From positions 1 through 24,196 of the forward strand of contig WJMJ01000170.1 in the NCBI GenBank assembly GCA_014728035.1: DNA of 24,196 bases, given 5' to 3'. The DNA comes from Promethearchaeota archaeon. GTDB taxonomy: Archaea; Asgardarchaeota; Thorarchaeia; Thorarchaeales; Thorarchaeaceae. Position numbers and translations under genes: made by a program. The notes under the pieces are model-generated. The model did no database searches, had not been told where the DNA came from, and was given only the letters and a program-made list of their open reading frames with translations. The number at the start of each line of letters is the position of its first letter. Position 1 is the first letter of the stretch. Below, piece after piece: positions 6,637 to 11,892 of the stretch.

Positions 6637-6960
6637 ATGAAAATGAAAGAATTTTGTAATCAAATTGAATCTTCTAAAGATATGAGTGGTGTTGGTATGG
6701 AATTGGGCGAAAATGATAAATTAAAGAGCGTGATTGTCAAGAGTGAGTTTACTGGTCTTGATGTAAAGTTGCCTGTTGAGGCCATAGAAAAATCTGATTG
6801 GAGCACAATCAGTGACATAATTGCTGGGAAAAGAGAACCTGCTGTCTTACAACACATGAGCAGGGTAGTAGGTTATTTTAGTAAAATAGAAAATTGGAAT
6901 TCGAGCAAGATTGGTGAATTGCACGACAGACAAAAGGGCGATTACCAACTTAAGGATTGA
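6637..6960 (+). CDS. Stand-alone NrdD-type glycyl-radical domain protein
   Basis: The C-terminal SRVVGYFSKIENWNSSKIGELHDR is the class III RNR glycyl-radical motif (Gly codon at 6871-6873). An AGGAG RBS is present. Confidence 0.85.
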   Translation: MKMKEFCNQIESSKDMSGVGMELGENDKLKSVIVKSEFTGLDVKLPVEAIEKSDWSTISDIIAGKREPAVLQHMSRVVGYFSKIENWNSSKIGELHDRQKGDYQLKD

Positions 6961-8337: not shown

Positions 8338-9255
8338 ATGCCGTCAAACATCAAGGTTCGTAAGAAAACTACCAGGAAGAACAATTCTACAGACATCAAC
8401 TTGTTGGTGAACACGGAAACAGATGATGTTTATTTTGAATGGGACAGGCACAAGATCGTAAATGCTCTACGCGAAGAGGGAGGTGTAGGAGAAAGAACAG
8501 CCAAGAACATAGCAAAATCTGTAGAGCAAAGGGTAATGGATTCTGGAATAAAGAAGATCACCACTTCTCTCATAAGAGAATTGGTTGATAATGAGTTGTT
8601 TGAACTTGGCTATCAAAAGAAGTTAGAAAAACAAGCATCTATTAGCCTACCGAAATCTGATATAGAGGAATTGATATTTTCAAAGAGCCAAGAAAATTCA
8701 AACATCGGAACCAATAATCCAGAAGCTATTCAGTTTTCTCTTTCAGAAACTGCTCTAAAGCAATATGCACTGCAGGAAGTTTTTTCTGAAGAAGTTGCTG
8801 AGGCCCACAGAACCGGCAAAGTACACGTCCACGATTTAGGACACCCTACAAGAATTTATGCATTCAGTAAAGATACAAAATTAATTGTAAAAATTGATGG
8901 TGATATCAGAGAAATGACGCTAGAAGAATTATATGATTGTGTCGATGGAATATCTTTGCAGATAAATGAAACTCAGCACACAAAAGAATGTTCCCATTCA
9001 GATATGTTTGTCTTAGACAGAAATGATTGGGTGAAGTTAAATAGGGTTATATTTTCTGACGAAGTTAAGGACATGGTTGAGTTTAGTGTTGGTGGGCACA
9101 TCGTGAAAGTCACTTCAGACCACGGGTGTGTTGTTAAAAGAAACAATAGGGTAATAATAACAAGAGCGGACGAAGTCAAAAATACAGACGAATTCATGTA
9201 CGTAATGAAGGAGTCTGTTGATGGTAATATGCCAAATATGCAAGAAAAAATTTAA
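8338..9255 (+). CDS. nrdD: Class III RNR N-terminal fragment (ATP cone) fused to split-intein N half
   Basis: ATP cone (WDRHKIVNAL..E...ITTSLIRELV), ENSN...NPE, and AH..G.VHVHDLG.PTRIY. Intein motifs follow from 8860. Confidence 0.9.
   Translation: MPSNIKVRKKTTRKNNSTDINLLVNTETDDVYFEWDRHKIVNALREEGGVGERTAKNIAKSVEQRVMDSGIKKITTSLIRELVDNELFELGYQKKLEKQASISLPKSDIEELIFSKSQENSNIGTNNPEAIQFSLSETALKQYALQEVFSEEVAEAHRTGKVHVHDLGHPTRIYAFSKDTKLIVKIDGDIREMTLEELYDCVDGISLQINETQHTKECSHSDMFVLDRNDWVKLNRVIFSDEVKDMVEFSVGGHIVKVTSDHGCVVKRNNRVIITRADEVKNTDEFMYVMKESVDGNMPNMQEKI
8860..9255 (+). mobile_element. Split intein, N half (starts with Ala)
   Basis: Block A-like AFSKDTKLIV, TLEELY, block B VKVTSDH, and the RADEVKNTD motif. 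Confidence 0.85.
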
Positions 9256-10195
9256 GGCGATTGGTCACAATCATTTGAAGACGCATGGTTTAACAGTCAA
9301 AGAATATAAATTGTTATATCCAGGTCATAAAATGATAAGTGATTCAACGATGGAGAAATACAAGTTACATACCAAAAAACTTGTTAAAGAAGGGGTATTT
9401 GGATCACGATCATCAAAAACGCATCTGTTTTTCTTGCATTTGTTGGAACAATATTTCCCATGTGTCGAGTTTGAATCTGAATACACTATTAAATATTATA
9501 CTGTTGACATTGTTTGTTTGGAAAAGAAATTGGCCATAGAGATTAATGGTGATTGGTTCCACAACAAAGACAATAAACCATATGATGAATTGACACCAAT
9601 ACAAAAAAAGAATCATAAAAATGACAAATCGAAATCGACATTTTTAAGAAGGAAAGGTTGGAATCAGGTTATCTTGTGGGAAAGCGACATAAAAAATTCG
9701 GTCGAGTCACAAGTTGAAATTGTTTCCAATTTTCTCAACAAAAAACCACTAGAAAACATCCATATTGATTTAAAAAAGAAATGCAAACAATGTGGCAAGC
9801 GTATTCCACCAAGTAAAAACAATTATTATTCGGAAGCTAAGAAGTATTGTTCAAATGAATGCAAAAACAAAGCTTTCCTCAGAGATAGAAATGATGATTC
9901 TGAATGGCGAGTGCATTGTAAACAATGTGGTAAGAAATTAAAAAACAGAAGAAATAAATCGTTTTGTGGCAAAGATTGCCAAAAGAAGTTTGAATCGGAT
10001 GAATCTTATAGGGAGGATTTGCACCAAAAGATTAGTAAATCCATAAAAGACTCAGAATATCACAAAAAACGAAGAATTAATGGCAGAGTTGATTTGGTTT
10101 GTGATTGTGGTAAAAATTTTTGGGTCCATAAGAAAAGATTAAAGAGGGGTGGCAATATTTGGTGTTCTAGAGATTGTTATATTAAATATCACTGA
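9221..10195 (+). CDS. Free-standing putative homing endonuclease (Vsr/DUF559-like PD-(D/E)xK) with zinc-finger repeats
   Basis: N-terminal CQIC..HL..HG finger; core VDI.....AIEINGDWFH...ND..K....KGW....WE; three C-terminal Cys-rich repeats. RBS AAGGAG at 9208-9213. Confidence 0.85.
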   Translation: MVICQICKKKFKAIGHNHLKTHGLTVKEYKLLYPGHKMISDSTMEKYKLHTKKLVKEGVFGSRSSKTHLFFLHLLEQYFPCVEFESEYTIKYYTVDIVCLEKKLAIEINGDWFHNKDNKPYDELTPIQKKNHKNDKSKSTFLRRKGWNQVILWESDIKNSVESQVEIVSNFLNKKPLENIHIDLKKKCKQCGKRIPPSKNNYYSEAKKYCSNECKNKAFLRDRNDDSEWRVHCKQCGKKLKNRRNKSFCGKDCQKKFESDESYREDLHQKISKSIKDSEYHKKRRINGRVDLVCDCGKNFWVHKKRLKRGGNIWCSRDCYIKYH

Positions 10196-10206
10196 ATGGA
10201 GATGAA

Positions 10207-10368
10207 ATGATATTAGAAAAAGGTGAAATTATTGAGCTTGATCCAAAAAGTTTTGATTATGATTCATATAAAATAGATAGTATTTCGTACGACAAAGAAG
10301 ATGGTGTATATGATATCACAACTTCTTCTGGATTTTTTCAAGACACAAACAATATTGTTCACAAACAA
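10207..10368 (+). mobile_element. Split intein, C half (54 aa, ends in Gln)
   Basis: KIDSI...VYDITT..GFF...NIVHKQ followed by the +1 Cys of NrdD. RBS GGAG at 10198-10201. Confidence 0.85.
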
Positions 10369-11892
10369 TGTTCCAGTCATTCTTTAGAATATATTAAAAA
10401 ATATGGTCTAGATCTCAACAATCTAGATTCCAAATCGGCTCCAGCAAAGCACGCCAGAACTCTTAGTGTCCATTTGAATTCTTTTTTGGCCAGCATGCAA
10501 GCTTATTATGCCGGTGCTCTTGGTGTTGCTTATGTTAATATCATGTATGCGCCATATCTAACAGAGATGAGCGATGATGAAATGTATCAGGAAGCTCAAC
10601 ATCTGATCTTCCAAGCTAGCCAAAATGCTTTCACCAGAGGCGGTCAATGTCTATTTATAGATTTCAATATACACACCGGAGTTCCAGGGTACCTTAAAAA
10701 TATAAAAGCAATCGGTCCTGGCGGTAAGTATACTGGCAAGACATATGGTGATTATGAAGATGTGGCCCTCAGATTTACTCACGCTCTATTGAAAGTATGG
10801 GGAAAAGGGGACGCAACCGGCACACCCATGGCATTTCCGAAGTGTAATTTGCATATCAATGACGATACTTTCAAAGACCAAAACCAAAAACAAGTTTTCG
10901 ATTTCGCATGCAAGATTGCTGCTAAAAATGGGATCGTCTATTTTGTGTTTGATAGAGATGAAGTAACTCTGAGTGCTTGTTGCAGACTAAGAACAACCAT
11001 TAGTGATAATTACATGATTGATCATCCTGAAAGCTTAAGGTTCGCGGGTTTTCAGAATGTAACCATAAATCTACCACAGTGTGCATATAGAGCAGGCAAG
11101 GAAAATATTGATCAATTGTATAAAGAATTAGAATCAATGTTTAAGATATGCATCAAAGCACACCTAGATAAGAAAAAATTTGCGTCTGAACTTATGAGTA
11201 AACCAGGCATGCCATTGTGGCAAGTTGGAAAGATAGCCAGAGATGGAAGACCATACATAGATCTGGACAAAGCGACTTACATTATCGGCGTTATTGGTCT
11301 GAATGAATGTTTACATTATTTGATTGGTAAAGAATTGCATGAAGATGAAAACACATTGTGGATTGGAATTAGGATAATTTCATATTTGTTCTTTTTAGCA
11401 AAAGAAGCTGAGTCTAAGTATGGTTTAAAGTTTACGATAGAGGAATCTCCAGCAGAATCCGCGTCAAGGCGCCTTGCCAAAATAGACCAGTATAACTTTA
11501 AAGACGTAATAGTCAGAGGTACTGGTGACGAAATATATTATTCTAATTCTATTCACATGAGGCCAGATGCCGATATAGATCTTTTAATCAGAATAACATG
11601 GCAGGCCAAATTTCATAAGATTATAGAATCTGGGGCCATCATACATGCATTTGTTGGTGAAAAGATGCCATCTTCAAAATCTATAGCTAACGTGATCTAT
11701 AAGACATTCAAGAACACAGATGCTGCCCAATTAACTATTTCTCCCGAATTCACGATATGTAAGAATTGCGGCAAAACTAAAATAGGGCTGAGAGATGTCT
11801 GTCAGCACTGTGGAGCCTGCAATATTTATGGAGTAGAATTCGGGAAATTCGAAGAAATTCATGAATGGGATAATAAGATTTTAAATAGGTGA
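10207..11892 (+). CDS. nrdD: Split-intein C half fused to class III RNR catalytic core, lacking the glycyl-radical loop
   Basis: CSSHSLEYIKKYGL, RGGQ, FPK, SACCRL finger loop, NVTINLP, EESPAES, YYSNS and CxxC-CxxC zinc site. No R-x-x-G-Y motif occurs before the stop. Confidence 0.92.
   Translation: MILEKGEIIELDPKSFDYDSYKIDSISYDKEDGVYDITTSSGFFQDTNNIVHKQCSSHSLEYIKKYGLDLNNLDSKSAPAKHARTLSVHLNSFLASMQAYYAGALGVAYVNIMYAPYLTEMSDDEMYQEAQHLIFQASQNAFTRGGQCLFIDFNIHTGVPGYLKNIKAIGPGGKYTGKTYGDYEDVALRFTHALLKVWGKGDATGTPMAFPKCNLHINDDTFKDQNQKQVFDFACKIAAKNGIVYFVFDRDEVTLSACCRLRTTISDNYMIDHPESLRFAGFQNVTINLPQCAYRAGKENIDQLYKELESMFKICIKAHLDKKKFASELMSKPGMPLWQVGKIARDGRPYIDLDKATYIIGVIGLNECLHYLIGKELHEDENTLWIGIRIISYLFFLAKEAESKYGLKFTIEESPAESASRRLAKIDQYNFKDVIVRGTGDEIYYSNSIHMRPDADIDLLIRITWQAKFHKIIESGAIIHAFVGEKMPSSKSIANVIYKTFKNTDAAQLTISPEFTICKNCGKTKIGLRDVCQHCGACNIYGVEFGKFEEIHEWDNKILNR

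Follow-up and report, generated by a model that had tools for sequence, protein, structure and literature searches.

A naturally split intein with alanine at position 1 and a Lys-Gln end between two active-site residues of NrdD

Two lineages of inteins that splice without a nucleophile at position 1 have been described, the class 2 inteins of archaeal KlbA and the class 3 inteins of helicases and terminases with a Trp-Cys-Thr triplet, and each is thought to have a single origin (PMC4031507, PMC2807308). All class 2 inteins known are orthologs of KlbA. They pair an Ala1 start with the loss of the His at G:6 (Ser is found there), and direct attack of Cys+1 on the N-terminal amide is aided by Thr B:7, His B:10 and Asp F:4 (PMC4031507; PMC2807308). 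In the solved class 3 inteins the Thr at G:5 forms a catalytic triad with Cys F:4 and His B:10 (PMC7664689), and the Trp at B:12 is part of the conserved class 3 motif (PMC2807308). Outside the Trp-Cys-Thr group, Tori et al. listed only five KlbA orthologs and one Gly1 helicase intein as nucleophile-less (PMC2807308). According to Hoffmann et al. in 2020, split inteins of class 2 or class 3 had not previously been reported, and these authors predicted that a natural split class 2 intein is possible (PMC7891396); a 2025 review names none, and none was found in further literature searches. The window analysed here is the entire 24,196-bp contig WJMJ01000170.1 (assembly GCA_014728035.1, Promethearchaeota archaeon), from a metagenome bin with 8.5% contamination. 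It carries an nrdD gene fractured by a naturally split intein that begins with Ala and ends in Lys-Gln. On balance, comparison of the sequences points to functional trans-splicing by a class-2-like route, in which Cys+1 would attack directly and the C-terminal Gln would then cyclise.

In its organization the locus resembles the fractured genes of Dassa et al. 2009 (gp41-1, NrdJ-1, IMPDH-1 and others), among which NrdD is not a listed host and nucleophile-less ends are unmentioned (PMC2677866). As in those genes, the host N-part with the N-terminal intein half (IntN) is followed by a free-standing Vsr-like endonuclease and by the C-terminal intein half (IntC) with the host C-part, on phage-like DNA and in a DNA-precursor enzyme. 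Unlike those genes, the window intein has Ala1 and a Lys-Gln end. The naturally split class 3 intein AceL NrdHF has an internal Cys at F:4 (PMC7891396), whereas in the window intein F:4 is Asp and every residue of the Trp-Cys-Thr triplet is missing. A C-terminal Gln is shared with the inteins of Pyrococcus abyssi (Pab) PolII and of the ribonucleotide reductase (RNR) from Chilo iridescent virus. Both of these presumably start with Cys and have His at G:6, in contrast to the Ala1 and Lys G:6 of the window. An earlier sequence-only reading of this DNA had known of no split intein that combines Ala1 with Gln; this fits the literature consulted, but the element is not unique, as a family shares its signature.

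Boundaries, motifs and active-site position

The fractured nrdD consists of three neighbouring genes on the + strand (8338-9255, 9221-10195 and 10207-11892). The N-half open reading frame (ORF) reads HVHDLGHPTRIY and then enters the intein with AFSKDTKLIV; the C-half ORF (561 aa) runs from its initial M to NNIVHKQ and continues with CSSHSLEYIKKYGL. Excision of 8860-10368 gives HDLGHPTRIY/CSSHSLEYIKKYGL, the sequence of uninterrupted NrdDs. Since a search with the N-half gave more than 40 uninterrupted NrdDs that have HLHDLGYPTRVY/CSSHSLEYLKKYGL at the insertion point, the insert is exactly 8860-10368, and the excision proposed by the sequence-only reading is correct to the base. The Ala (GCA) start, the VHKQ end and the intact block B TxxH of that reading were all confirmed in the sequence. 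The split is equally real: IntN terminates at a TAA (9253-9255), IntC has a separate start with a ribosome-binding site, and the layout is repeated in an independent sample (locus L007) at 82% protein identity.

The insert has the features of a HINT intein. It lies in frame at a conserved host site, its removal restores TRIY/CSSH, blocks A, B (T-x-x-H), F and G are identifiable, and the HINT fold is supported by profile comparison and by AlphaFold2 (AF2) modelling of a contiguous relative; the Pfam Intein_splicing match on the window protein is sub-threshold only. Block B reads V-T-S-D-H-G-C (9109-9129), with Thr at B:7, His at B:10 and Cys instead of Trp at B:12. Block F is V-Y-D, with Asp at F:4, and block G has His rather than Thr at G:5, Lys rather than the usual His at G:6, and Gln at G:7. 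The replacement of the penultimate His by Lys had gone unmentioned in the sequence-only reading, as had the sharing of the whole signature by a family. Separate adjacent halves, an endonuclease gene in the gap and a predicted association of the halves mark the element as a naturally split intein.

With Ala (GCA at 8860) at position 1, the intein falls outside class 1, whose members have Cys, Ser or Thr there. The class 3 signature, judged missing from the start, is indeed replaced by Cys B:12, Asp F:4 and His G:5 in the places of Trp, Cys and Thr. A non-nucleophilic residue 1 together with Cys+1 and no Trp-Cys-Thr triplet agrees with class 2 as defined by sequence; KlbA orthology is not found, the alignment with KlbA being partial and the host gene different. 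Like class 2 inteins (Methanocaldococcus jannaschii KlbA and its archaeal orthologs), the window intein has Ala1, Cys+1, Thr B:7, His B:10 and Asp F:4, and lacks the G:6 His and the triplet. It differs from KlbA in its host, a phage NrdD, in having Lys instead of Ser at G:6 and Gln instead of Asn at the C-terminus, in being split, and in being closer to PolII by profile. The IntN profile of the family matched Pab PolII best among solved inteins (E 1.2e-12), and KlbA (2jmz) with E 4e-4 over a partial alignment.

Cys+1 (Cys55 of the C-half) aligns with Cys125 of Thermotoga maritima NrdD, and Tyr-1 aligns with Tyr124, which places the intein between two active-site residues of NrdD. T. maritima Cys125, the counterpart of Cys79 in T4 and Cys175 in E. 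coli, is a residue that all RNRs share and that takes part in the reductive half-reaction, and Tyr124 points at the ribose (PMC4493059). If retained, the HINT domain of ~185 aa would separate Tyr-1 from Cys+1 within the active site.

A model of the IntN and IntC complex scored 0.88, compared with 0.00 for the best of 3 controls, with contact agreement between runs of at least 95% and a partner pLDDT of at least 86. Of 80 solved complexes 58 reach the docking mark, as do 2 of 110 mismatched pairs. Because solved structures of split inteins exist, passing this mark may indicate likeness to them rather than binding.

The family of inteins at the NrdD Tyr/Cys site

Protein searches and contig look-ups across many independent metagenomes yielded a table of 38 inteins inserted at the NrdD Tyr/Cys site. 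Residue 1 is Ala in 23 of them, Ser in 7, Thr in 6, and Lys and Gln in one each, making 25 of the 38 nucleophile-less; a Cys1 form at the NrdD site was also found. All four Ala codons (GCA, GCG, GCC and GCT) are used for Ala1 across the family, both CAA and CAG for the Gln, and both AAA and AAG for the Lys. The suspicion that Ala1 arose by a recent one-step change from Ser, or from a read error at GCA, is therefore rejected, Ala1 being conserved in a diverged family with all four codons. Of the 38 inteins, 37 have Thr B:7 and all 38 have His B:10. Every known IntC has Asp F:4 and is followed by Cys+1, and the IntC N-terminus M-x-L-x-x-G-x-I-I is kept in relatives.

The two ends of the intein vary together. 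Lys G:6 is found in all 10 nucleophile-less members with both ends known, and all end in KQ or KN: HKQ in seven (the window, L007, L008, L013, L015, L016 and L023), NKQ in one (P0076) and CKN in two (L010 and L025). A His-Asn end is found in 11 of 11 relatives with Cys, Ser or Thr at position 1. At the level of the sequences compared, the co-variation of the two ends is real. In an IntN tree with residue 1 left out, the nucleophile-less rows cluster, with a minimum of three changes, and one change is also compatible; a Ser1 member (P0079) is nested among Ala1 members.

Compared with L007, IntN has a ratio of nonsynonymous to synonymous substitution (dN/dS) of 0.18 and IntC one of 0.04, synonymous sites being saturated, and the N-extein has 92% protein identity. 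As dS is saturated in most pairs, dN/dS is given for some pairs only, and the C-extein values are disturbed by second inteins in the relatives. The intein halves are under purifying selection.

Several arrangements of the intein occur at this site. Canonical inteins with Cys1, Ser1 or Thr1 and a His-Asn/Cys end exist in contiguous and split forms; they share the Tyr/Cys insertion with the window intein and belong by profile and tree to one family with it, but, unlike it, keep the first nucleophile and the His-Asn end. P0076 is a contiguous (cis) NrdD of 914 aa with a mini-intein that has Ala1, an NKQ/C end and an insert of ~187 aa. Its AF2 model, built with an alignment, has a pLDDT of 85 and a HINT fold, with a Foldseek probability of 1.00 to solved inteins; it matches the Aes123 PolB1 split intein and the TFIIB, PolII and RadA inteins, with KlbA at rank 15. 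A Lys1 variant (FY/KFSKH, with an HKQ/C end) is present as an identical protein in two independent assemblies (L015 269-1147 and L020 402-1298), its halves overlapping by 4 nt with no gene between them. P0084 (locus L025, 1108-3210) and P0121 are in-frame fusions of IntN with the endonuclease, and IntC is on a separate gene; the P0084 intein has a Gln1 start and a CKN end. The fused arrangement looks like a form midway between endonucleases that are free-standing and those embedded in an intein. Elsewhere the gap between the halves holds a DUF559 endonuclease as in the window (L007, L023), a DUF723 protein (L008), a 368-aa protein (L010) or a 49-aa ORF (L011), and in L013, L015 and L016 it contains no gene.

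The NrdD family is outside both described nucleophile-less lineages, since the listing of nucleophile-less inteins by Tori et al. covers none like it. It would combine a class-2-like logic with other residues and another ancestry, and it is not part of the KlbA family.

In IMG/VR, a scan with the IntN profile returned canonical phage DnaE split inteins only, and a scan with the IntC profile returned one canonical Cys1 contiguous NrdD intein only. A metagenome scan gave two short loci. Word-based searching with IntC alone found 2 proteins, and with the IntC alignment 12. On three IMG/VR contigs (L017, L018 and L019) a canonical split intein with Cys1 and a His-Asn/Ser end fractures a phage DnaE (Pol III alpha); the protein encoded in the gap there (324 aa) has zinc ribbons and a nuclease domain, a build like that of the window endonuclease with the domain order reversed.

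The locus and its surroundings

The coordinates of the features are collected in Table 1. All three genes of the fractured nrdD have their own start codon and ribosome-binding site, and all frames are open. The endonuclease gene and the end of IntN share 35 nt in different frames, and the endonuclease ATG at 9221 has AAGGAG 7 nt upstream; the IntC ATG at 10207 is preceded by GGAG at 5 nt. A group I intron or a frameshifted contiguous intein was ruled out, as each gene has its own start, stop and ribosome-binding site and some relatives are without a gene in the gap. The predicted endonuclease is of the Vsr-like homing type, with a Pfam DUF559 match (2.1e-06, 28 bits, cut-off 20.6) and matches to MTES_1575 and to a PHROG homing endonuclease.

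Table 1. Features of the fractured nrdD and of the separate glycyl-radical ORF in the window
Feature	Position	Strand	Description
Glycyl-radical ORF	6637..6960	+	Small ORF with the NrdD C-terminal motif (..SRVVGYFS..); Pfam NRDD positions 532-561, E 5.9e-05, under the curated cut-off
NrdD N-extein	8338..8859	+	ATP-cone and first part of the NrdD core, ending ...HDLGHPTRIY (Tyr-1); Pfam ATP-cone, NRDD positions 1-59; aligns with uninterrupted NrdDs
IntN	8860..9255	+	131 aa and stop; Ala1 GCA 8860-8862; Thr85-x-x-His88 (block B) 9112-9123; Cys90 (B:12) 9127-9129
Free-standing homing endonuclease gene	9221..10195	+	324 aa; ROS/MucR-like zinc finger, Vsr/DUF559 nuclease core, C-terminal CxxC zinc ribbons
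IntC	10207..10368	+	54 aa; block F V-Y-D, Asp36 (F:4) 10312-10314; block G end His-Lys-Gln (CAC AAA CAA) 10360-10368
NrdD C-extein	10369..11892	+	Begins with Cys+1 (TGT 10369-10371); Pfam NRDD positions 54-529, E 1.7e-98; core ends in a Zn ribbon

The core NrdD ends in its Zn ribbon without a glycyl-radical motif, which is carried by the separate ORF at 6637-6960. In two relatives (L011 and L012) a 59-aa NRDD ORF follows nrdG. The contig also carries phage-type genes, namely a clamp loader, homing endonucleases, a topoisomerase IB and a 2054-aa protein. It is probably a piece of a larger phage genome, because the related locus L010 sits on a contig of 206 kb. Phage GenBank records gave no DNA or protein match. 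An 86-aa ORF at 7765-8025 matches the phage endonuclease families phrog_681 and phrog_559 over a segment only and is probably the remnant of a homing endonuclease gene. In relatives a DUF723 gene of ~473-518 aa neighbours the gene for topoisomerase IB; it lies upstream of that gene in L007 and L016 and downstream in L008.

Other inteins are found in NrdDs of this group. The C-halves of L007 (6437-8872), L008 (5981-9232) and L010 (7258-10602) contain a second, contiguous LAGLIDADG intein, and the C-half of the window is without one. The same bin (G000) has a second NrdD on contig C70 (locus L003), an ORF from base 1 that is uninterrupted at Tyr/Cys. It contains a canonical mini-intein ~110 aa past that site (RGGQ/SVHGDECIII ... 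IIAHN/TLFSDFN), with Ser1, a His-Asn end and Thr+1.

Splicing route, alternatives and significance

The route that we infer would begin with separate synthesis of the NrdD halves, after which IntN and IntC would dock into a single HINT domain. Because residue 1 is Ala, no thioester could arise at the N-terminal junction. The Tyr(-1)-Ala1 peptide bond, which Thr B:7, His B:10 and Asp F:4 would strain and polarise, would instead be attacked directly by the thiol of Cys+1, the catalytic cysteine of NrdD. A branched intermediate would result in the manner of class 2. Cyclisation of the C-terminal Gln would then release the intein, and an S-to-N shift would leave a native Tyr-Cys bond in the active site. 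The penultimate Lys in place of His may lower the pKa of Cys+1 or aid Gln cyclisation, and the homing endonuclease gene in the gap would be the selfish element that split the intein. This class-2-like route is favoured by the conservation of Ala1 and of the Lys-Gln end, the invariance of the activating residues, purifying selection on the halves, a contiguous relative with the same ends and the insertion between active-site residues. P0076 in particular would keep ~187 aa in its active site unless spliced, and therefore counts for splicing.

A number of points weigh on the other side. The case for splicing is comparative throughout, and the co-variation of the ends may represent one to three evolutionary events only. 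The C-terminal residue is Gln, where the known class 2 inteins have Asn; some Gln-ended inteins splice, and they can be slow (PMC4031507). No nrdG activase gene is present on the 24-kb contig, and radical-SAM candidates are on other contigs of the bin. Assembly from several chains is not foreign to the window NrdD, which already has its glycyl-radical motif on a small protein of its own. Finally, an internal nucleophile is conceivable, if quite improbable, with Cys B:12 in almost all HKQ-type members and Cys G:5 together with Val B:12 in the CKN-type members, these being the positions of Trp and Thr, two of the three of the class 3 triplet. By such a class-3-like mechanism, judged to have the same small likelihood, the internal Cys (B:12 in the HKQ group, which includes the window, or G:5 in the CKN group) would take up the N-extein as a thioester and hand it to Cys+1. 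However, the nucleophile-less clade does not have the candidate Cys at one homologous position throughout. The canonical Ser1 relatives P0018 and P0085 have Cys B:12 too, so that it was present before the first nucleophile was lost. The Asp at F:4 is what class 1 and class 2 have, and the +1 residue is Cys, where class 3 nearly always has Ser or Thr (PMC2807308). Equally little likelihood is given to a chemistry beyond the three known classes, either through an internal Cys (B:12 or G:5) or through a catalytic penultimate Lys that enables both the amide attack and Gln cyclisation.

Of the two options offered by the sequence-only reading, class-2-like trans-splicing is the one favoured by the comparative evidence, and a loss of splicing is considered unlikely. 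In the latter case the HINT halves would serve as a tight docking module, perhaps with C-terminal cleavage by Gln cyclisation, and the enzyme would be a two-chain complex. The lack of an N-terminal nucleophile, of a penultimate His and of Asn is consistent with this, as are the glycyl-radical motif on its own protein and the predicted docking of the halves. There is also a precedent, in that phage RNRs split by homing endonucleases can function without splicing; the NrdA of phage Aeh1, described by Friedrich in 2007, is reportedly a phage RNR split by a homing endonuclease that works in this way. Yet a HINT domain of ~185 aa would stay between Tyr-1 and Cys+1 in the active site, and Thr B:7, His B:10 and Asp F:4, which serve bond activation only, are invariant over ~25 diverged members. 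Docking would be meaningless in the contiguous P0076, which has the same ends, and Ala, Lys and Gln at the ends have each been kept through synonymous codon changes. An artefact or decay, that is a sequencing error at GCA or a pseudogene, is hardly credible: the contamination of the source bin would allow it, but the same ends occur in many independent samples, all frames are open with their own ribosome-binding sites, and dN/dS is far under 1.

If class-2-like trans-splicing is borne out, the NrdD inteins would represent an independent, phage-borne origin of the class-2-like route and its first natural split form, and hence a third nucleophile-less lineage. Were the chemistry instead to lie beyond the three classes, they would constitute a fourth class by mechanism, in which cis and split members both occur naturally. 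The family is recognizable by a co-varying signature, in which position 1 is Ala, Lys or Gln, G:6 is Lys and G:7 is Gln or Asn, and contiguous, split, endonuclease-fractured and IntN-endonuclease-fused forms coexist in it. It would offer a natural test of amide activation for direct attack, and may provide a split intein that requires only Cys at +1.

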